NCBI GenBank assembly: GCA_016874735.1
Contig: VGTI01000008.1
Location: 18,636 to 82,635 of the forward strand
Reading direction: 5' to 3'
DNA: 64,000 bases
Source: Deltaproteobacteria bacterium
GTDB taxonomy: Bacteria > Bdellovibrionota_B > Oligoflexia > Oligoflexales > CAIYRB01
Positions within the stretch are counted from its first letter, which is position 1; each line of letters starts with the position of its first letter. This document shows positions 15,412 through 25,233 of this stretch, one piece after another. The translations under genes and the position numbers were made by a program. Under the pieces are notes generated by a model. It searched no databases. It was not told the origin of the DNA and saw only the letters and a list, made by a program, of their open reading frames with translations.

Positions 15412-16374
15412 ATGTTGATCAAGATCCGTGACAAGTCGCATGCCAGCGAGCAAGATGTCACACCTAAAGGACTTTATCTCAATCGCCGCAGGATCATGGC
15501 AGGGCTGGCTCAAGGCACGGTCGCAGCTGGAGCAGCTGGCTTAACACTCCCGTTTTGGAGTGACCAGGCTCAAGCGGCGAAGACTTTTGAGGGTGTGACG
15601 CGTAACAACGCTTTCGCCATTAATGAAAAACTAACCCCGCTCAAGGATGTCACGAGCTACAACAATTTTTACGAATTTGGTACCGATAAAGAAGACCCCA
15701 AGAGATTCAGCGCTGGCTTTCGCACTAAACCATGGAAACTAGTGCTCGACGGCGAGTGCGAAAAACCCGGCACCTATGAACTCGAAGATTTCCTCAAACC
15801 GCAAAAACTTGAGGAGCGCATCTATCGGCTGCGCTGCGTCGAAGCCTGGTCGATGGTGATTCCGTGGATCGGTTTTCCTTTGGCGGATGTCATAAAGGCC
15901 GCTAAACCGCGCAGCAAAGCCAAATTTGTCGCCTTCACGACGCTACAGAATCCCGAGCAAATGCCGGGCCAAAAGCGCCCAATTTTGGATTGGCCTTACC
16001 GCGAGGGTCTCCGCCTCGATGAAGCCATGCACCCATTAACCATTCTGGCCGTCGGCCTGTACGGCGAAGTACTCCCCAACCAAAACGGTGCGCCGTTGCG
16101 TCTTGTCGTTCCGTGGAAGTATGGATTCAAAAGTATAAAATCCATCGTCAGAATCACTTTCACGACTGCGCAGCCCGTAACCTCCTGGAACATGATGGCG
16201 CCCGAAGAGTATGGCTTTTACTCCAACGTAAATCCTAAAGTTGACCACCCACGATGGTCACAGGCCAAAGAGCGCCGTATCGGTGAGCTATTTAAACGCG
16301 AGACACTCATGTTTAATGGCTACGACCAAGTCTCCGGCCTTTACCAAGGTATGGATCTCAAAAAAGATTATTGA
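15412..16374 (+). CDS. msrP: protein-methionine-sulfoxide reductase catalytic subunit MsrP (YedY)
   Basis: Tat-like [25 protein letters not shown] and CVEAWSM motifs. ATG 15412 is preceded by GGAG; the longer ORF from 15307 overlaps the HIT gene. Confidence 0.85.
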
Positions 16375-17003
16375 TGCGTCCCAACATAAAACAAAAATTA
16401 CTGTTGATGAAAACAGTGCTGCTATCAGTACTTTTGTTGCCACTAGTTCATTTGGCACTAGCTTTTATGAACGATGATCTCGGCGCCAACCCCGTTGAGA
16501 GAATGACTCACGTCACTGGTGATTGGGCCTTACGGATCCTGCTCCTGTCACTATGCATGACACCCGTGCAACTCCTCCTCAAATGGCGCAAAGCTATACT
16601 GATGCGACGCCTCATTGGACTTACAGCCTTTGGTTATGCGGCCCTGCACTTCGGTGTTTATCTAGTTTTTGACCAAGAACTAAGCCTTGTCGGTACCATG
16701 ATCGATGTCAAAAAAAGACCGTACATCACGGCGGGATTTGCCGCACTCTGCCTGATGGTGCCGCTTGCCATTACCTCAACTGATCGCCAGATCAAGAAAA
16801 TGGGGAGCAAGAGGTGGCAGATGTTACACAAATCCGTGTACTTGGTTACCACGTTGGCGATTGTTCATTATTGGTGGCTAGTCAAGGCAGACATCACCAA
16901 ACCGCTCATATATGGGTTTATCTTTGCCGCATTGATGTTCCTGCGTCTTGGCAAACATAGCCTTAAGATGCGTATGCCTCTTCTTAAGAGGCCACCTCAG
17001 TAA
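16374..17003 (+). CDS. msrQ: MsrQ (YedZ) heme-binding membrane subunit
   Basis: Ferric-reductase-like 6-TM protein with conserved His residues (HFGVY, VHYWW). TGATG overlap with the msrP stop; the ORF opens at TTG 16371. Confidence 0.8.
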   Translation: MRPNIKQKLLLMKTVLLSVLLLPLVHLALAFMNDDLGANPVERMTHVTGDWALRILLLSLCMTPVQLLLKWRKAILMRRLIGLTAFGYAALHFGVYLVFDQELSLVGTMIDVKKRPYITAGFAALCLMVPLAITSTDRQIKKMGSKRWQMLHKSVYLVTTLAIVHYWWLVKADITKPLIYGFIFAALMFLRLGKHSLKMRMPLLKRPPQ

Positions 17004-19278
17004 CTACCTCATCAACCGCCTGATGTATCTCATGTCCGGCTAGTGCTGCGCTAAGAGATCTAAATATAAAATCGCACTGCCTGGATCCACCACCGTGGAT
17101 CTTGAAGCCGTGCTCGTTGCCGCTGTCAGACCGTTTACTCCACCGCACTTCCAAAGCGAATTCCGCCAGTAAAGCTTCTGCTAACAATGCATTTACCGCC
17201 GGATCTGAGGTCTCAATACGCGTTGAAATAATGGTTTGACGACCCAGGAGCCGGTCACCGATCGCGCGGAATCCATAACGCGAAAAATCCTGGACAACAA
17301 ATTCACCCACGTCGCTCTTGAGCCTGATTGCGCCACCGGATCTGAGCCTAAACCTCTGGTCTAGCGAGCGCATACCAATACGGTCCAAAAACACAGTCTC
17401 GGCGCGCTGCAGTAAATCCCTCGCCTCGCTAAAGGGATTAAATTCAAATGCCTGTAGTAACTTGGTCTGATGCTTGACGGCAATGGAGATGGGTGTAAAC
17501 ATGGACACATCTACCTCGGCGAGTTGGAGCTGCTCAGCTACGGCTGCGCTTACCATGATTTTGTAGGGACTGCAGGCCTCTTTTAAGCGGCTAGCGAAAT
17601 TAACACCAGCGCCGATCACTGTGAAATCAAGACGGTCTTGGTCACCGAGATTACCTACCGTCACCCTTGCCGTGTGTATGCCAATGCGCAGCGGCATGAT
17701 CATCTTACTGTCGCCGCAATCGAGAGCTCGTTTCACATTCATTTCCTGAATCCGCGATGCCGCCTTAAAAGCATCCAAAGACGGATCGAATGACTTACCT
17801 ACCCTCTTGTACCCGAATAAAGCCAAAACCCCAGCACCCATCGAACGATCAATCGAACCATTGTGCTCCTCAATGATTTTGAAAACATCATCCATGACAA
17901 GGGCTAGCTCTTGATAAATTCTCTCTTGTGACTGACCAACAGCAATTTCAGAAAAAGAGGCAATATCGATGAATATCATCGAAATATCCAATTGACTTGT
18001 ATTAAAATGCCCCGAAAACGACTCGTTGAGCAGTGCATTGAGTCGCACAAGATCACCATCTTTGCGGAACGCATTGATGATCTGCTTGTGGCGATTCTCC
18101 ATGTATCTAAGACGCAAACTCATTGACAACGAAAATGTGGCAGCACTTAATATAGCCCCAAAATGCAGCGCGCACTCCCGCACCTGAGTCGACTCCAAGA
18201 TTCCAACTTCAGCGAGAAGAAAGACCACGCCACCAACTAAGTAAAACGATATCGCTGTAGCAAAAAGAAAGACGAAACTCTTATTCATGTACCCCTGGTA
18301 TATGATTAAGTTGCGCGCAATTGCACCACCGGTGGCAAGCAGACCGATTTTAAAAATGATATCTGGACTGGCAAAGGCAAAACTCGCTGCCACAGCAATA
18401 GAAACATAAAGATGGATTTTTAAGTAACGATGGAGGCGGGGGAAGTTACGTCTATAGTCAAAAAATCTCCCCGCAAAAAGATAGATGAATACAAAGAAAA
18501 GACCAAACGCGACCGCAGCCATACGAAATTCGAACCCGCGCCCGATCGCTAGCTGCGGCAGTACTACTTTTGTAAAATGGGTAAAATATAGTGTGATAAT
18601 TACATTAGACGATAACCACATTGCCAAATAGGCAAAAGATAAATCTCTCAAAATAAAGAACAGGACTAATACATAAATGGTAAATCCAATGAGACAGCCA
18701 TTAAGAATTGCCCACTGAATTGTTAATTTCCGGACATAGACTCGATAATCACTCTCACGATAGACTTTGGGGACCACCGCCACATCGCCCTGAGACTCCG
18801 TTTTCACATAAAGCGTCGACGCAGCGGTCTTAGAACCAAACTGAAAATGATACCCATGGTCCGACTGACTCGCGAATGTTTCCGGGTAATCATCTCCCAC
18901 AGTGATATGGCGTTCGATATCCGCATTGGATACGAGATAAAAATCGATACGTGAAAAATCGAGGATTTTCGCCCCATGTAAACTCGCGATCCAATCCCCC
19001 TCTTGCTCAGGGAGTTCATCCAAGTCCAGTCGATACCAGTGGATCACCTTACCACCGTCAGGCTTCATTTTGCTTTTGCCATCAGTCGATTCCCAGGCCG
19101 AGGCGGGAAGTCTGATGACCTGCGCGATGTCTGTCGTTGTACCATCTAAGACCAAGTGATTAACAGGAACTGATTGATGTATGTCACTCCGAAAATCGGG
19201 TACCAGCAGTAACAACCCCAAAAAAAATACTGCTGGCAGACGCGACCATATTCCCAACATTGATGACTTAAGTCCCAT
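16984..19278 (-). CDS. 7TMR-DISM sensor / class III nucleotidyl cyclase / PilZ fusion protein (paralog retaining Asn-Arg but lacking the second metal Asp)
   Basis: Periplasmic N-domain with HWYRLDL, then 7 TM helices. Cyclase block IFIDIASFS...SMGAGVLALFG...RIGIHTARV...DFTVIGAGVNFASRLK. C-terminal PilZ motifs RFRLR and DFSRYG. Confidence 0.8.
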   Translation of the reverse strand: MGLKSSMLGIWSRLPAVFFLGLLLLVPDFRSDIHQSVPVNHLVLDGTTTDIAQVIRLPASAWESTDGKSKMKPDGGKVIHWYRLDLDELPEQEGDWIASLHGAKILDFSRIDFYLVSNADIERHITVGDDYPETFASQSDHGYHFQFGSKTAASTLYVKTESQGDVAVVPKVYRESDYRVYVRKLTIQWAILNGCLIGFTIYVLVLFFILRDLSFAYLAMWLSSNVIITLYFTHFTKVVLPQLAIGRGFEFRMAAVAFGLFFVFIYLFAGRFFDYRRNFPRLHRYLKIHLYVSIAVAASFAFASPDIIFKIGLLATGGAIARNLIIYQGYMNKSFVFLFATAISFYLVGGVVFLLAEVGILESTQVRECALHFGAILSAATFSLSMSLRLRYMENRHKQIINAFRKDGDLVRLNALLNESFSGHFNTSQLDISMIFIDIASFSEIAVGQSQERIYQELALVMDDVFKIIEEHNGSIDRSMGAGVLALFGYKRVGKSFDPSLDAFKAASRIQEMNVKRALDCGDSKMIMPLRIGIHTARVTVGNLGDQDRLDFTVIGAGVNFASRLKEACSPYKIMVSAAVAEQLQLAEVDVSMFTPISIAVKHQTKLLQAFEFNPFSEARDLLQRAETVFLDRIGMRSLDQRFRLRSGGAIRLKSDVGEFVVQDFSRYGFRAIGDRLLGRQTIISTRIETSDPAVNALLAEALLAEFALEVRWSKRSDSGNEHGFKIHGGGSRQCDFIFRSLSAALAGHEIHQAVDEVVTEVAS

Positions 19279-21568
19279 AATTCCCCCTTAACGGGGCGTC
19301 ACGGACGACTTTCATGTGCGTGGAAAAAACATGAATGAGAAGATCTACTTGCTTACTATTGCCGCCAAGTAATTTTATGCCATGCTCATATCCAGCCTCG
19401 GTCTTACGACTCCATCGGACCTCGACCACTAACTGATCCATGTATTTTTGTCGGAGTTTTTGATTAAGAATCTCTACACCCGTATCAATCTCGAGTTCCA
19501 TAATCACTTTTTGGGCAAAATAATGCTCGGAAATGACTCGCATGCCACTTGCGGAAAAATCTAACACCTGAAACTTCGCATGCGGCGCCTTGAGTGTGAT
19601 GACCTGTGTGCTAACAAGCGCATGGCGCGCCTCACGAGGAAAAACCCCAACCTGCGAAAAATACACTGATATGGCAGTCCTTAGATCCTCAGGCCGTGTC
19701 TTTTCCAAGCTAAACTCATAAGCTAGTGCCAGATTTTTTTGGTGTTTCAGGGAAACATTGACCGGAGAAAAAACGTCAGATTCAAGTCCACTTGCAACCA
19801 GTTTTTCGAAGCACATTGCGCTTATCATTACATTAAAAGGACTGCAGGCTTGCTCAAGATTACTGACAAAATTGACGCCATGGCCGACCATGGTAAAGTC
19901 AACGCGAAGGCCTCCACCTAGGTTAGCAAGTAACACTGTATCCGAATGGATGCCTATGCGCACTGGCAGCAACCAATCCTTTTCGTACTGTCCTTGTTTT
20001 TTTATCCGCAGTGCCTCATCTATCAGCATATTTTGAATGGCTACAGCGGCATGAAAGGCATCGCGGGCATGACCGGCACTGCTTTCATTTTTGCCCGTAA
20101 AAAAACAAAGTAATCCGTCACCCAACGAGCGATCGATAACCCCATGGTTGGCGACAATCAGACGCGTCAGTGAATTAAGTCGTCGGGACAGGTCGGCAAA
20201 TATATCAGAAGAAGCATCACGGTCTGCAACTAGCGAGAACGCCATGATATCGATATACATGATCGTGACATCAATTTCGCGACTGCTAATCGGTGCCAGA
20301 TTAAGCTCTGATTCGGTCAACGACTCCGTTAATTTGTTGCTTTCGCCGCGCAGTGACCGAACGATGCCACGATGCTTAAGCTCGAGCTGTCGAATGCGAT
20401 GCGTGGCTGCGGCTGACAGGAAGATGAAACCAAAGATGACGCCAGCATCGGCAAAATAATGGGCAAAATAACTAGCTGGGATGAAGCCTAACCAGGAACC
20501 CATCGAGATCACTACCGCCGGTAGAAATCCGCTCAGAAACATTCTGTAGTAAACCAGACTTCTGATCGGCCAGCGCATGATATCAACTATGGCTGTTGTA
20601 CAAACAGCGACATTAGTTACCGTGACCATCACGATCAGAATCGGCGACGCTCTAAAAATGGGGGCAAGCACAACCTCCAAAGCCGTGAAGGCTATGACAA
20701 ACTTTGCCCACGAGCTGAGATGATGACGGCCGAGGTCTCTAACGACATAACTGTGGTTCAGGAACATCAGTAGAAGTTGAGGGATCAGAATGATCTCCGC
20801 GATGATCAGGACGTGCACCGAAATATCGCGACTGAAATCGGGCCAAATGTAAAAAATCTGGCCACTAAAAAACAGTGGGAAGAATGCGTTGCCAATCTGT
20901 GAGGCTACCAACAACGCGTAGATCAGTTTACGTACGGTGAAGAGTAGGAGTAGGTTGTACATACAAAAGCTTAGATAAATCCCCGCCATAGCAGCGTGGA
21001 CCCAACTCCGAAGGGTCATCAGGGCGCGATGGTTCGCTTCCACGCCTATGAAAAGAGGCGCCACTATTGCCACGTCTGTCTCGAGACGCAGGTACAAAGT
21101 ACGATCTTGAGTGGTACTAGGGAGGAATTTGATGGTAGCAAATGGCGACTCGGTTTGACCCGGACGCTCTAAGCCACCGAAAGCCGACGCAACCACGGCT
21201 TGGGCCTCAACCAAATAAAAATCAACTTTACGGATCAGATGGTAACCAATTTCCGCGATGATTGGCTTTGGATCCGCCTGGGAGCGGACTTGGATCCGGT
21301 ACCAAACAGGCCGCACACTGCCCATAACTCCGAAGTGATGCTTGGCTTCTTTAGCCTCCCACGCCGACTCCGGTTGGTTTTTTATGTCGTCAATCGAGCT
21401 GATGTCCGTGTCTAACGGCCCAACGAAGCGCGCTGCACGGTAGTAAGTACCATCAAAACCGGCCGGATCAGGAGCAACCAGTGCAATGGTCAGAAAAACC
21501 AACGCGGGCGAGATCGCCATCAGTCGGTATGCCCAATCGGGAGGATTTCTGAACCAAGTCCGTATCAC
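19268..21568 (-). CDS. 7TMR-DISM sensor / class III nucleotidyl cyclase / PilZ-like fusion protein (paralog retaining both metal Asp but lacking the transition-state Arg)
   Basis: Same architecture as the downstream paralog. VWYRIQV, 7 TM, MYIDIMAFS...SLGDGLLCFF...RIGIHSDTV...DFTMVGHGVNFVSNLE. C-terminal REARH...DFSASG. The stop overlaps the downstream gene's start by 11 nt. Confidence 0.8.
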   Translation of the reverse strand: MIRTWFRNPPDWAYRLMAISPALVFLTIALVAPDPAGFDGTYYRAARFVGPLDTDISSIDDIKNQPESAWEAKEAKHHFGVMGSVRPVWYRIQVRSQADPKPIIAEIGYHLIRKVDFYLVEAQAVVASAFGGLERPGQTESPFATIKFLPSTTQDRTLYLRLETDVAIVAPLFIGVEANHRALMTLRSWVHAAMAGIYLSFCMYNLLLLFTVRKLIYALLVASQIGNAFFPLFFSGQIFYIWPDFSRDISVHVLIIAEIILIPQLLLMFLNHSYVVRDLGRHHLSSWAKFVIAFTALEVVLAPIFRASPILIVMVTVTNVAVCTTAIVDIMRWPIRSLVYYRMFLSGFLPAVVISMGSWLGFIPASYFAHYFADAGVIFGFIFLSAAATHRIRQLELKHRGIVRSLRGESNKLTESLTESELNLAPISSREIDVTIMYIDIMAFSLVADRDASSDIFADLSRRLNSLTRLIVANHGVIDRSLGDGLLCFFTGKNESSAGHARDAFHAAVAIQNMLIDEALRIKKQGQYEKDWLLPVRIGIHSDTVLLANLGGGLRVDFTMVGHGVNFVSNLEQACSPFNVMISAMCFEKLVASGLESDVFSPVNVSLKHQKNLALAYEFSLEKTRPEDLRTAISVYFSQVGVFPREARHALVSTQVITLKAPHAKFQVLDFSASGMRVISEHYFAQKVIMELEIDTGVEILNQKLRQKYMDQLVVEVRWSRKTEAGYEHGIKLLGGNSKQVDLLIHVFSTHMKVVRDAPLRGNYGT

Positions 21569-21624: not shown

Positions 21625-22128
21625 CTAGCCTTGGGAGTTGGCTAATTCATATTTAGCTGCGCTATCTCCGCGAATCTTGTAGGAAATCTTGCCATATTGG
21701 CTGTCCGTCGTACTGATATAGAGCCGCCCCCTGATCCACACTGGACCCCAAGAACGCTTGGGTGCCTGACCACTGCTCATCCGCACCATGACCATTTGAT
21801 TGGGCGGAGGAGGAGGCACATGGATGCAGGCCTGAGGACTAGGTACCAATAGAAATTCTGAAAGCCCCTGATCATCGTCTTCAAGCGGCACGACGAATCC
21901 CGGTACCTTGACCGGTTGACCATCAAGTTTAGCTAAGGCTGCTGGGATCTTTCCCGTCACTAAATCAAGCTCACGCAGCTGCAGCCAGTCGACTTCTTGG
22001 TAGGCATCATCGGCCAGTACTGGCTCTGACTCCGCGCTCAGTATATGCCAAGTCCAGTAGCCAGCTAGCACCAACACCGGAATCACGGCTAGTAAACAAA
22101 GAACCATTTTTTTGCGCAAAGGAATCAT
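21625..22128 (-). CDS. DUF3299-like periplasmic protein (ABC-exporter accessory)
   Basis: N-terminal TM anchor and the characteristic FLLVPSPQACIHVPPPPPNQMVMV block. 4-nt overlap with the upstream permease gene. Confidence 0.7.
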   Translation of the reverse strand: MIPLRKKMVLCLLAVIPVLVLAGYWTWHILSAESEPVLADDAYQEVDWLQLRELDLVTGKIPAALAKLDGQPVKVPGFVVPLEDDDQGLSEFLLVPSPQACIHVPPPPPNQMVMVRMSSGQAPKRSWGPVWIRGRLYISTTDSQYGKISYKIRGDSAAKYELANSQG

Positions 22129-23402
22129 AAGCGAATCACCAGTCCGTCACTTAAACTGTGGCGATAGGCACGCCAGGCGGGAATCGCACCAAGAATGAGT
22201 CCGCACATCATTATGGCGCCAAAATAAAAAATCTCGACGGACGAGAACGATTCAACCGCAAGATGAAACCCGAAATGATTAGCCACAACGGGCTGCATCA
22301 CCCATAGTAAAACCCGCGTGAGTATGATCCCTAGCACTGCGCCAGAACCGACCAGTATCCCAGCTTCAGTGACAAGGAGGCCGAAAATGAGTCCGGGCGT
22401 GGCGCCTAAACTTCGGAGAATAGCCATCTCCCGACGCCTTTCGCTTAAGGAATTGTAAACGGATACCAGCATCCCGGTGAGACCGACTAAGACCACAAAT
22501 ACAGCAACTAGCCTTAGAGCATCCTCGCCGTAAGCTAACCCCTGCCAAAGCTCGTCCAACGCCACACCAGGCATCACTGCCGTGAGTGGCTCAGTTTTGA
22601 AGTCATTCCAAAAACGCTGCATCGTCAAAATATCCATTTTTGATTTAGCACCAACAAAGACGGCCGAAATCTCTTCGATAGCAAAATTCTTTGCCGCCAA
22701 CTCAGACGTCCTTAGTGCTTGATCACGTCGCGGAGGCGCTCCGTCTTCCCAACCATGATGAATGGCCTCGAGTCCCGCTAAAGGTATGAAGATTGTTCGG
22801 TCAACCGGACTACCCGTCGGCTGCAAAATACCGGTCACATGGAACGGATGATCCTCGTGTTTGTGGAAAGAAACCTCACCCACGCCGTGACTGAGCGCTA
22901 GCTTTTCACCAAGTCCGTAATCTAGGCGGCGCGCAACAGCACTGCCAATGACCGCGGCGAAGAGATCGCCACTCCCGGCATCGGCACTAAATCCCCCCGC
23001 GGCAAACTCAAGTTTTTGCTGACGTCGCGTCTGAAAATGTTTGAAAAAATCAGACGTCGTTGCCACAACACGGTAGCTTCGGTGACTGTCCCCCATCGTG
23101 ATCGGCACCGCCCAGGCCGTTTTCGGATCGGCTTGAATCGCTTTAAAAGTAGCAAATTTCATGTTAGCCGTCGGACTGCCGATATGAAAAACAGCATTGA
23201 GCAGCAGCGGCAAAGTGCCCCCGCGCGAGCCCACGATCAAATCAGTCTGACTGATAGCGCCGGTGAAACTTGCATGGGCACCGACGCGAATCCGTTCTAC
23301 AAGCATCAAAAGCGCCGTCGAGAGCCCAATCGACAGGATCGTCAAGCTGGTGACTAGGCGCCGCATGGCCAAGGATTTCCATGCAAGTTTGCACAATATC
23401 AC
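22125..23402 (-). CDS. FtsX/MacB-type ABC transporter permease
   Basis: N-terminal TM, a large periplasmic domain, and a C-terminal FtsX-like 3-TM bundle (RRREMAILRSLGA...). Confidence 0.8.
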   Translation of the reverse strand: MILCKLAWKSLAMRRLVTSLTILSIGLSTALLMLVERIRVGAHASFTGAISQTDLIVGSRGGTLPLLLNAVFHIGSPTANMKFATFKAIQADPKTAWAVPITMGDSHRSYRVVATTSDFFKHFQTRRQQKLEFAAGGFSADAGSGDLFAAVIGSAVARRLDYGLGEKLALSHGVGEVSFHKHEDHPFHVTGILQPTGSPVDRTIFIPLAGLEAIHHGWEDGAPPRRDQALRTSELAAKNFAIEEISAVFVGAKSKMDILTMQRFWNDFKTEPLTAVMPGVALDELWQGLAYGEDALRLVAVFVVLVGLTGMLVSVYNSLSERRREMAILRSLGATPGLIFGLLVTEAGILVGSGAVLGIILTRVLLWVMQPVVANHFGFHLAVESFSSVEIFYFGAIMMCGLILGAIPAWRAYRHSLSDGLVIRL

Positions 23403-24142
23403 GGACGTTGCTCCCTAAAACGCTGCGCTATCCGGTTCAGGGCAGGAAGCGAGCACTTGCGATGAAAATGGCGCCCTAGACTTTGGTCATGGCTGACAAA
23501 AATCACCGTCGCCTGGGAGTCATCGGCAATCGAACTGAGGAGCGCGATAAACTCATCACGGTGATCGACATCTAATGCTGAAGTAGGTTCATCCGCAATG
23601 AGTAGTCGCGGAGCTCCGATAAGAGCGCGGGCAGCTGCTACGCGCTGTTGCTCACCGACACTAAGCTCAGTTACCGACTTATGCAGGAGATGTTTGATAT
23701 CGAGTCGTACTGCTAGTGCCGTGGCAGCTGCAGTGGGCGAGGCTCCTGCAAGATTAGCCTGGCGTGCTCTGCTGATCGTACACGGCAGGATGATATTATC
23801 CATGACATCAAGATAAGGAATCAGATTGAACATCTGAAATATGTAACCGATATGATCGCCGCGAAATAGATCTCTCGATCGCGCACTCATGCCGCCCAGT
23901 GCGACACCATCGACGGCGACTTGGCCACTGTCTGGGCTAATGATGCCAGACAGAAGCCCAAGCAAGGTGGTCTTGCCACTGCCGCTTGGGCCGTGAATAA
24001 AGACTCGCTCGCCCCGACTCACCTTGAAGGCGGGAATATCAAGAATCTCCCGCCCTGCTTTGTAGGAGTACTTAAGCGAGCTGATTTCGATTGCCGGAAT
24101 CGCTTGGTTCAAATGCGCCTCGAAGCTGAGGATTTTGGTCAC
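23399..24142 (-). CDS. ABC transporter ATP-binding protein (LolD/MacB-type)
   Basis: Walker A GPSGSGKTTLL, signature LSVGEQQRV, Walker B LLIADEPTSALD. 4-nt overlap with the permease gene. Confidence 0.9.
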   Translation of the reverse strand: MTKILSFEAHLNQAIPAIEISSLKYSYKAGREILDIPAFKVSRGERVFIHGPSGSGKTTLLGLLSGIISPDSGQVAVDGVALGGMSARSRDLFRGDHIGYIFQMFNLIPYLDVMDNIILPCTISRARQANLAGASPTAAATALAVRLDIKHLLHKSVTELSVGEQQRVAAARALIGAPRLLIADEPTSALDVDHRDEFIALLSSIADDSQATVIFVSHDQSLGRHFHRKCSLPALNRIAQRFREQRP

Positions 24143-24237: not shown

Positions 24238-25233
24238 CTAAACGTAGACTTCGTCCTTACTCATAATGGTAATCTTGCCGTCAGCCGCTAGAGCCTGAGC
24301 TAAATCGGCGAGTTGTTGCTGGGCGGCTTGAACCTCTTGCAGGCGCACTTTAGGTAGAGCTGCGACATCGTCGCGTAGTAATTTTGCGGCACGCTCGGAG
24401 AGGTTCTTATAGATGTGCCGACTGGTAGCGTCGTCTGCCTGTTTCAGGGCCAGGCGCAAAGTCGCCGCGGGCACCTGGGCCAGCAGAGCCTGCATGTCGC
24501 GATCACTGAGGCGGGTTAGATCGGCGAAAGTGAAGAGTTGCCTGCGGAGTTGCGCCGCCATTGTGGGGTCACGCCCCTCTATATCTACGATAAGTTTTTC
24601 AGCCTGAGCCTGTGGCATGACATGCAGCAGCCCAACCAGCTTGGCTGGACCCCCGACCGCGTGTGCGGCGATCTGAGAACGGCTGCGACTCTCCTTCAGA
24701 GCCTCAGCGACAGCTCTTAAACTTGCCAAATCGACATCACCAAGCTTGGCCAACCGATGGACTGCCTCCGTTTGCAGGGCTGGCGGCAGTAAACCGATCG
24801 CTTTGGCTGCCTGCTGGGGTAGACAGTGCGCGAGCACCACAGCCATGGTTTGAGGAGCCTCAGCCTGTAACCATTTGGCCATCGCCTCTGGTGCCATTTC
24901 ACCAACTAGTTCAGCTAACTCCTGAGATGCGACCGCTGCCTCACTCACTAAGGTAGCAGCCTCACGCGACCGCCCGGCTAGCTGCAGAATACGCTGCGCG
25001 GCTTCCGGCGTGCCGGTCAGCTGCGGCCGGTAATTGACTAATGTCTGGTAAAACTCCCCCGACACCATTTGGACGACCGAGCCGTCAACCTGTCCCAGCC
25101 GACTCATGGCTGCCGCGATGCGGCTTACCTCGGCCGGCTGCAGGTGCCCGATAATCTGACTGGCTACGTCCTCCCCTAAACTCAGGAGCAGGATAGCCGC
25201 CTTCTCAGCACTAGACAGTTTGACTTCGGTCAT
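24238..25233 (-). CDS. fliG: flagellar motor switch protein FliG (orphan copy in this window)
   Basis: 331 aa, colinear by eye with E. coli FliG. Matching blocks: AAILLLSLGED, EAPQTMAVVLAH (EHPQ block), LFTFADL, NLSERAAKLLRDD (torque-helix R/DD), KVRLQEV, and C-terminal DEVYV. Confidence 0.85.
   Translation of the reverse strand: MTEVKLSSAEKAAILLLSLGEDVASQIIGHLQPAEVSRIAAAMSRLGQVDGSVVQMVSGEFYQTLVNYRPQLTGTPEAAQRILQLAGRSREAATLVSEAAVASQELAELVGEMAPEAMAKWLQAEAPQTMAVVLAHCLPQQAAKAIGLLPPALQTEAVHRLAKLGDVDLASLRAVAEALKESRSRSQIAAHAVGGPAKLVGLLHVMPQAQAEKLIVDIEGRDPTMAAQLRRQLFTFADLTRLSDRDMQALLAQVPAATLRLALKQADDATSRHIYKNLSERAAKLLRDDVAALPKVRLQEVQAAQQQLADLAQALAADGKITIMSKDEVYV

Follow-up and report, generated by a model that had tools for sequence, protein, structure and literature searches.

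In the active site of a class III nucleotide cyclase, two metal-binding Asp residues and a β4 Arg are provided by one monomer, and an Asn, the transition-state Arg and a β7–β8 Lys by the other (PMC2576301). Mammalian adenylyl cyclase (C1/C2) and soluble guanylate cyclase (sGC, α/β) are head-to-tail class III dimers with one competent and one degenerate site (PMC2576301, PMC8815786), each monomer of the mammalian enzyme lacking the residues that its partner supplies (PMC2576301). One-site heterodimeric cyclases of this kind are considered characteristic of higher eukaryotes (PMC8815786), and the class III cyclases of bacteria are described as homodimeric, with two equivalent sites (PMC9552081); we found no bacterial precedent for a one-site heterodimer in the literature searched, the coverage of which was incomplete. 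Here we describe two overlapping genes, A and B, on the minus strand of a 64,000-nucleotide stretch (the window) of contig VGTI01000008.1, from a bacterium of the class Oligoflexia. We consider it probable, from comparison of their sequences, that A and B encode the two subunits of an obligate, C1/C2-like heterodimeric membrane class III cyclase with a single shared active site. This is because A lacks the transition-state Arg and B the second metal Asp, the one site that the two can complete together is intact in the 16 tandem pairs compared, and the upstream and downstream genes form mirror-image clades.

Like the subunits of sGC, A and B are separate polypeptides. The pair differs from mammalian C1/C2 in being bacterial, in being encoded by two overlapping genes rather than as one fused chain, and in carrying 7TMR-DISM sensors and C-terminal PilZ domains. 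Unlike both mammalian C1/C2 and sGC, it has relatives that preserve intermediates, some pairs being fully symmetric and others having one lesion only. The two genes and their junction are as follows.

19268..21568, minus strand: gene A (upstream), 766 residues, GTG start with AGGAGG 8 nucleotides upstream; the putative 'C1-like' subunit.
16984..19278, minus strand: gene B (downstream), 764 residues, ATG start; the putative 'C2-like' subunit.
19268..19289, minus strand: the A/B junction; the TAA of A (19268..19270) lies within the first codons of B (ATG at 19276..19278), giving an 11-nucleotide overlap.

The lengths, strand and coordinates of both open reading frames (ORFs), and the overlap between them, are as given in an earlier description of the window made from its letters alone (the sequence-only reading). 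A and B are full-length paralogs with 26% identity (E = 4e-75), and their NCBI records are FJ146_06515 and FJ146_06510, respectively. The purine-rich sequence AAGGGGGA is found at 19282..19289 (minus strand), directly 5′ of the ATG of B. The same 11-nucleotide overlap is present in the related locus L002, and elsewhere it is replaced by gaps of 0–127 nucleotides; according to the contigs' own gene calls, the junctions of related pairs range from the 11-nucleotide overlap to a gap of +127 nucleotides and are tight in every pair.

Alignment to Spirulina CyaC (1WC0/1WC1) shows that A keeps GDG and reads GVNFVSNL in place of ...AARL, with Asn570 at the position of the transition-state Arg, and that B reads GAG in place of GDA, with Ala482 at the position of the second metal Asp, and keeps GVNFASRL. 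Both metal Asps are present in A (D440 and D484), B keeping the first alone (D438). The ribose Asn and the transition-state Arg of helix α4 are N560 and R564 in B, which also retains the β7–β8 Lys; A has the Asn (N566) and, in place of the Arg, Asn570. The two-Asp and the Asn-plus-Arg requirements of a class III cyclase are satisfied by the pair jointly and not by each subunit. The base-specifying pair is Arg and Thr in both proteins (DRS.G and DFT). The relevant codons are the following.

19859..19861, minus strand: Asn570 of A, at the position of the transition-state Arg in the alignment to CyaC.
17833..17835, minus strand: Ala482 of B, at the position of the second metal Asp (DRSMGAG against DKFVGDA in CyaC).
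17842..17844 (R478 of B) and 20126..20128 (R480 of A), minus strand: the base-specifying Arg, which replaces Lys (DRS.G against DKT.G).

In class III cyclases the base-specifying residues come from the same monomer as the ribose Asn and the transition-state Arg. Because the active site draws residues from both monomers, a homodimer of either protein would be defective at both of its sites, that of A for want of the transition-state Arg and that of B for want of the metal Asp. An A·B heterodimer would have one complete site, formed by the Asps of A with the Asn, Arg and Lys of B, and one doubly defective site. The sequence-only reading had taken A and B for two parallel paralogs and had overlooked these complementary lesions, which point to one heterodimeric enzyme. 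Two independent homodimeric sensor cyclases, encoded by tandem paralogs with a ligand each and separately tuned by cyclic di-GMP (c-di-GMP) through their PilZ domains, would agree with the general description of bacterial class III cyclases as homodimers with two productive sites (PMC9552081), and unpaired 7TMR-DISM–cyclase–PilZ genes with all residues intact do exist (L010, L013 and L017). The defects that such homodimers would carry at both sites tell against this arrangement for A and B, as does the comparison of related pairs.

In each of 16 non-redundant tandem pairs we scored the eight catalytic positions of both sites, giving 128 positions per site. Site α is made up of D, D and R from the upstream protein and K/R, T, N, R and K from the downstream protein, and site β is the reciprocal site. 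Site α has 0/128 lesions, and site β has 19/128, found in 8 of the 16 pairs. The window pair has no lesion in site α and two in site β; at the extreme, in L004 and L027, five of the eight site-β residues are lost. With the addition of L019, whose upstream ORF is split, the 17 non-redundant pairs form a graded series: nine are intact, L019 among them, three have lost the upstream Arg only, and five have lost both the upstream Arg and the downstream Asp. The opposite polarity of lesions was not seen in any of the 17. The upstream gene of L019 (1098..3397 of that locus) consists of two overlapping ORFs, the result of a frameshift, a pseudogene or an assembly error, and a call of 'upstream Asp lost' at this locus was false, being due to the split and not to a real lesion. 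Homodimers are possible in principle in the nine pairs that keep every catalytic residue in both genes. Nevertheless, of the two heterodimer sites one carries all 19 lesions and the other carries none, the clades of upstream and downstream genes have diversified in parallel, and the gene order is never broken; two independent homodimeric cyclases are in our view an unlikely explanation.

The same counts bear on the idea that A and B are catalytically dead pseudo-cyclases, acting as receptor or scaffold only, for example as a c-di-GMP-binding membrane protein. Each of the two proteins is missing one essential catalytic residue, and the specificity Lys is replaced by Arg, as this idea would have it. 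The eight site-α residues, however, are kept in 16 of 16 pairs although the subunits are only ~25–30% identical overall, which is not expected without selection for catalysis, and the decay is confined to site β. We judge dead enzymes to be less likely still than independent homodimers.

A neighbour-joining (NJ) tree of the cyclase–PilZ module resolves all upstream and all downstream genes as separate clades whose internal topologies agree, and the shared sub-clades have bootstrap values of 98–100% in both halves. The Arg has been lost in two to three separate upstream lineages (to Q, to N and to N/S), and the Asp has been lost downstream only, and only where the Arg of the partner had already gone. 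The tree is consistent with one ancient tandem duplication, after which the two copies diversified together and whole pairs were later duplicated within genomes. Together with the conserved adjacency of the genes and their tight or overlapping junctions, the mirror-image phylogeny gives indirect support to a partnership between A and B.

The domains of the two proteins are arranged in the same four-part order.

21050..21397, minus strand: periplasmic 7TMR-DISMED2 domain of A, residues 58–173 (Pfam 47.9 bits, cut-off 22).
20402..21004, minus strand: 7TMR-DISM seven-transmembrane (7TM) region of A, residues 189–389 (Pfam 44.7 bits, cut-off 29).
19754..20272, minus strand: class III cyclase domain of A, residues 433–605; best solved relative Spirulina CyaC (1WC0/1WC1).
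19334..19633, minus strand: PilZ domain of A, residues 646–745; loop P-R645-E-A-R648, then D670-F-S-A-S-G675.
18775..19131, minus strand: periplasmic 7TMR-DISMED2 domain of B, residues 50–168 (Pfam 30.3 bits, cut-off 22).
18118..18714, minus strand: 7TMR-DISM 7TM region of B, residues 189–387 (Pfam 47.7 bits, cut-off 29).
17476..17988, minus strand: class III cyclase domain of B, residues 431–601; Guanylate_cyc Pfam match.
17044..17370, minus strand: PilZ-fold domain of B with its N-terminal loop, R637-S-L-D-Q-R642, then F-R-L; D664-F-S-R-Y-G669.

7TMR-DISMED2, 7TMR-DISM_7TM and Guanylate_cyc (PF00211; 35.0 bits in A and 46.6 bits in B, cut-off 21.9) are all above the Pfam gathering threshold in both proteins; NCBIfam models gave nothing useful for either. 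The Pfam check that the sequence-only reading had proposed for its four domains bore out these three and left the fourth, PilZ, borderline in A and undetected in B. The Pfam PilZ model (PF07238, cut-off 22.5) scores A at 22.4 bits as a whole protein and at 26.6 bits as an isolated C-terminus, and it matches 5 of 14 C-termini of the family when these are taken singly. AlphaFold models of the C-termini of A and B consist of a β-barrel followed by a C-terminal helix, with predicted local distance difference test (pLDDT) values of 79.8 and 81.9, respectively, and barrel cores above 90. Searched against the PDB with Foldseek, they match PilZ domains only among the top 44 (A) and top 41 (B) matches, with probabilities of 0.97–1.00; the matches include Alg44, PP4397, YcgR, BcsA, VCA0042, MotI, MrkH and MapZ. 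The models thus identify both C-termini as PilZ folds, with a six-stranded β-barrel and a C-terminal helix. Given the Pfam domains and the exclusively PilZ structural matches of the modelled C-termini, the four-part architecture first described from the letters alone is real in both A and B.

The register of the PilZ motifs was set by the V. cholerae protein VCA0042/PlzD, for which a c-di-GMP complex has been solved, together with canonical members of the family. A first profile of the C-terminal module (A2) retrieved no PilZ domain from the PDB sequences. A broader profile of 31 sequences (A3) found VCA0042 as the sole PilZ, and the polyubiquitin rows ranked above it in this search are an artefact of summed sub-threshold repeats. 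The A3 profile and VCA0042 align without gaps ('erkdeRwpv...vvdFSrsG' and 'RRKEPRFEL...LRDLSRSG'), at a marginal E of 0.03–0.13 and with identical spacing. In this register, the invariant Arg of the family is the second Arg of RxxxR (the last of RRxxxR), 22 residues before the Asp of DxSxxG as in VCA0042, and corresponds to R648 in A and R642 in B, each likewise 22 residues ahead of the motif Asp. The loop of A is P-R-E-A-R, an RxxR in which the remaining Arg stands at −3; that of B is R-S-L-D-Q-R (RxxxxR), where Ser fills the place of the canonical first Arg and an Arg is found at −5. The DxSxxG motif is DFSASG in A and DFSRYG in B. Its Asp is near-invariant and its Ser and Gly invariant in an alignment of 14 family sequences; in the 31-sequence alignment, the Ser is near-invariant and the Gly invariant. 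The second Arg is near-invariant in the family as well. The displaced Arg is itself kept, as RxxR in 16 of 17 upstream genes and as an Arg at −5 in all downstream genes of the window clade, and this conservation suggests a ligand site that has been maintained.

This register differs from that of the sequence-only reading, in which B had a canonical RxxxR (RFRLR) and A had lost the second Arg. The strings and codons were quoted correctly (RFRLR, first Arg at 17353..17355, with DFSRYG 17 residues on; REARH, Arg at 19634..19636; and DFSASG), but RFRLR is out of register with both the family and VCA0042. It starts at the canonical second Arg and extends into the modelled β1 strand, its F and L fill the hxh positions, and its last Arg gives way to Lys in B orthologs (RFRLK, RFSIK and RYRIK); having considered it as a shifted but functional RxxxR, we rejected it as the canonical motif. 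Such a string is unremarkable because the tail of B is rich in Arg: the last 364 residues contain five RxxxR strings against 2.1 expected, with a chance of ~9% that one is suitably spaced. A retains the second Arg, as R648, and its PilZ domain is the one recognised by Pfam, that of B being missed. In the alignment neither motif is canonical, and the contrast between a canonical B and a degenerate A fails.

The C-termini resemble BcsA, Alg44 and VCA0042/PlzD in the PilZ barrel with its C-terminal helix, in the [D/N]hSxxG motif and in the second Arg, with the 22-residue spacing of VCA0042, and as in BcsA the PilZ domain is at the C-terminus of a membrane enzyme. They differ from these proteins in the displacement of the first Arg of RxxxR in both A and B and in the fusion partner, a nucleotide cyclase. 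The fusion partners of PilZ given by Galperin and Chou are REC, GGDEF, EAL, HD-GYP, MCP, CheC, HlyD and GT2, with no mention of cyclases (10.1101/814665).

The cyclase domains of A and B match the structures of CyaC and CyaB with E values of 7e-17 to 1e-12. With these homodimeric class IIIb enzymes of Spirulina (CyaC) and P. aeruginosa (CyaB), their best solved matches, they share the catalytic scaffold and a Thr as the second specificity residue; CyaC and CyaB differ in being homodimers with two complete sites, in having Lys at the first specificity position and in having no PilZ domain. Lys with Asp or Thr as the substrate-specifying pair denotes ATP, and Glu with Cys or Ser denotes GTP. About one-third of the members of the family with a CHASE2 sensor also carry Arg in place of the base-specifying Lys, Arg and Lys alternating across the family. 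The product predicted for the A/B pair is most likely cyclic AMP (cAMP), because the closest solved relative, CyaC, is a Lys/Thr-type adenylate cyclase and because Lys and Arg interchange within the family.

From these observations we infer that A and B associate physically as an active enzyme, which might operate as follows. Two different periplasmic DISMED2 domains with their 7TM bundles would sense an external signal, and the overlap of the genes would favour equimolar synthesis of A and B. In the head-to-tail cyclase dimer, A would provide both metal Asps and the β4 Arg, like mammalian C1, and B would provide the base-specifying Arg and Thr, the ribose Asn, the transition-state Arg and the β7–β8 Lys, like C2. 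The reciprocal site, with the Asps of B and the Asn and Arg positions of A, is crippled on both sides and would be non-catalytic, possibly regulatory; the forskolin site, its mammalian counterpart, binds a regulator. The PilZ domains appear to be derived from the canonical, c-di-GMP-binding type found in a cyclase–PilZ family largely confined to the Bdellovibrionota, and c-di-GMP or a related ligand probably modulates the cyclase through them.

Several points weigh against this interpretation in whole or in part. Some class III cyclases that lack the Arg or the Asp are still weakly active. The deep split between upstream and downstream genes in the NJ tree has only moderate support, with bootstrap values of 74% and 62%. 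The lesions are phylogenetically non-independent, so that the 19 perhaps represent seven to nine events, the pattern remaining one-sided. Arg replaces the base-specifying Lys in all 7TMR-DISM members, and the product is to that extent not certain. As regards the ligand, the first Arg of RxxxR is absent from its canonical position in both A and B, and the Pfam PilZ model finds no match in B even at E ≤ 10; on account of these two features, we put the binding of c-di-GMP by this A/B pair at about an even chance.

There is a form of the heterodimeric cyclase in which the enzyme is real and the PilZ folds of this pair no longer bind c-di-GMP, serving as structural or dimerisation modules or binding another ligand. 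The shift of the first Arg, to −3 in A and to −5 in B with Ser at −4, and the lack of a Pfam PilZ match in B would be expected in this case, and PilZ domains that lose the RxxxR and DxSxxG motifs lose c-di-GMP binding according to the survey of Galperin and Chou (10.1101/814665). On the other side, both proteins keep D-h-S-x-x-G, the hxh residues and the second Arg at the 22-residue spacing, the displaced Arg shows the conservation noted above (in 16 of 17 upstream genes as RxxR, in all window-clade downstream genes as Arg at −5), and close relatives have fully canonical motifs. We place a heterodimeric cyclase with such non-binding PilZ folds only a little short of an even chance.

The architecture is neither rare nor unique to the window. 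A scan of one genome per species gave 408 related stretches, and an exhaustive profile search found the cyclase–PilZ module in ~417 clusters at 50% identity. An impression of a tiny family, gained from word-indexed protein searches (21 and 16 matches, the search with B missing A), is overturned by these numbers. A hidden Markov model of the module, run on the fetched loci, identified 91 ORFs with the entire module, and those of the named loci that carry it in full belong largely to the Oligoflexia and Bdellovibrionota. The module mostly occurs as CHASE2–cyclase–PilZ with canonical motifs, and among the sampled CHASE2 members, those of cultured Oligoflexus tunisiensis and Bdellovibrio sp. HCB337 have CHASE2, Guanylate_cyc and PilZ all above the Pfam threshold. 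Among single-gene members, 37 of 47 read the canonical xRxxxR followed by hxh (for example ERVDQRWPV), and 33 of these also have [D/N]xS, the Gly not being scored separately; all eight catalytic residues are kept in all but two of the single-gene relatives.

The CHASE2–cyclase–PilZ proteins of the Oligoflexia and Bdellovibrionota (Oligoflexus tunisiensis Shr3, L032 and L035; Bdellovibrio sp. HCB337, L045) have the same cyclase–PilZ module as A and B, with agreement in the EVRW and HG motifs and the PilZ domain directly after the cyclase in both. They differ from A and B in being single genes with all eight catalytic residues, most of them with the specificity Lys and most with canonical RxxxR...[D/N]xSxxG motifs; the sampled members have a CHASE2 sensor in place of 7TMR-DISM and PilZ scores above the Pfam threshold. 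In the NJ tree, the 7TMR-DISM group and the CHASE2 members are separated with 100% bootstrap within one family. The metagenome-assembled genomes AM_0764, Loclat_bin-10810 and LacPavin SED2/SED3 (loci L008–L030) each contain several paralogous tandem pairs in addition to CHASE2-type single genes, a lineage-specific expansion of the family. We found no paper in the accessible literature describing or testing a cyclase–PilZ fusion, in agreement with the sequence-only reading, which knew of no characterised example, and none there characterising the CHASE2–cyclase–PilZ proteins.

A link between cAMP and c-di-GMP within a single protein has been characterised experimentally in Bd1971 of Bdellovibrio bacteriovorus, a cAMP-activated EAL c-di-GMP phosphodiesterase (PMC6717892). 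Bd1971 comes from the same phylum as A and B, for which such cross-talk is proposed only. It differs from them in acting in the opposite direction, cAMP controlling the breakdown of c-di-GMP, and in its unrelated cyclic-nucleotide-binding and EAL domains.

The neighbourhood of the pair varies. Some pair-bearing contigs keep the arrangement of the window (FliG, ABC/MacB, DUF3299, A, B, MsrQ/MsrP, HIT, HAD), and in other contigs the tandem pair is found among quite different genes. On the minus strand 5′ of A lie three genes that overlap one another by 4 nucleotides and end 56 nucleotides before the start of A; a stand-alone gene adjoins this cluster and a convergent gene meets the 3′ end of B.

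24238..25233, minus strand: stand-alone FliG-like gene (331 residues), in the same place in L001 and L004/L005.
23399..24142, minus strand: ATP-binding cassette (ABC) ATPase.
22125..23402, minus strand: MacB/FtsX-type permease.
21625..22128, minus strand: DUF3299 protein.
16371..17003, plus strand: MsrQ-like gene, overlapped by the 3′ end of B over 20 nucleotides (16984..17003).

The ABC ATPase, permease, DUF3299, A and B genes could form a five-gene operon. Their association with the pair is restricted to the window clade and is not found in L006 or L007, and scans for promoters and terminators around A and B gave only the background of shuffled sequence and are uninformative on operon structure. 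The convergent 20-nucleotide overlap of B with the MsrQ-like gene is likewise present in L001, L002 and L004. The guanine plus cytosine content of A (0.489) and B (0.469) is in both cases below the window mean of 0.532. The C-termini of A (19271..19312) and B (16987..17028), and of nearly all pair proteins of L001–L027, end in a small hydrophobic tail (...EVA, ...DIA, ...DAA or ...VAS; VVTEVAS in the window-clade B orthologs), which may be a recognition or degradation tag.

All the parts of the A/B pair are known, and it is their combination that is undescribed: a split-gene bacterial heterodimer resembling C1/C2, with its intermediates preserved and with PilZ domains. The fullest form of our proposal is that the pair is the bacterial split-gene equivalent of C1/C2, that its relatives keep every step from a symmetric two-site to a one-site enzyme, and that PilZ ties cAMP synthesis directly to c-di-GMP. 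We advance it tentatively, as somewhat less than an even prospect when all of its parts are required together.

A bacterial lineage appears to have evolved independently the one-site asymmetry known from eukaryotes. With living intermediates in the form of intact, one-lesion and five-lesion pairs, comparison of natural pairs can address directly why and by what route one site is given up and what role the degenerate site later takes on. That a single catalytic centre would be served by two periplasmic sensor domains that differ from each other suggests combinatorial sensing. The cyclase–PilZ fusion, if it is a true regulator, would lead from c-di-GMP to cAMP synthesis within one protein, a link that is absent from the published surveys of PilZ architectures; this link of c-di-GMP to a cyclase is encoded in hundreds of protein clusters of predatory and related bacteria, and its canonical versions with CHASE2, present in cultured Oligoflexus and Bdellovibrio, are open to experiment at once. 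If this holds, then together with Bd1971 it would mean that the Bdellovibrionota hard-wire their cAMP and c-di-GMP systems to each other in both directions.

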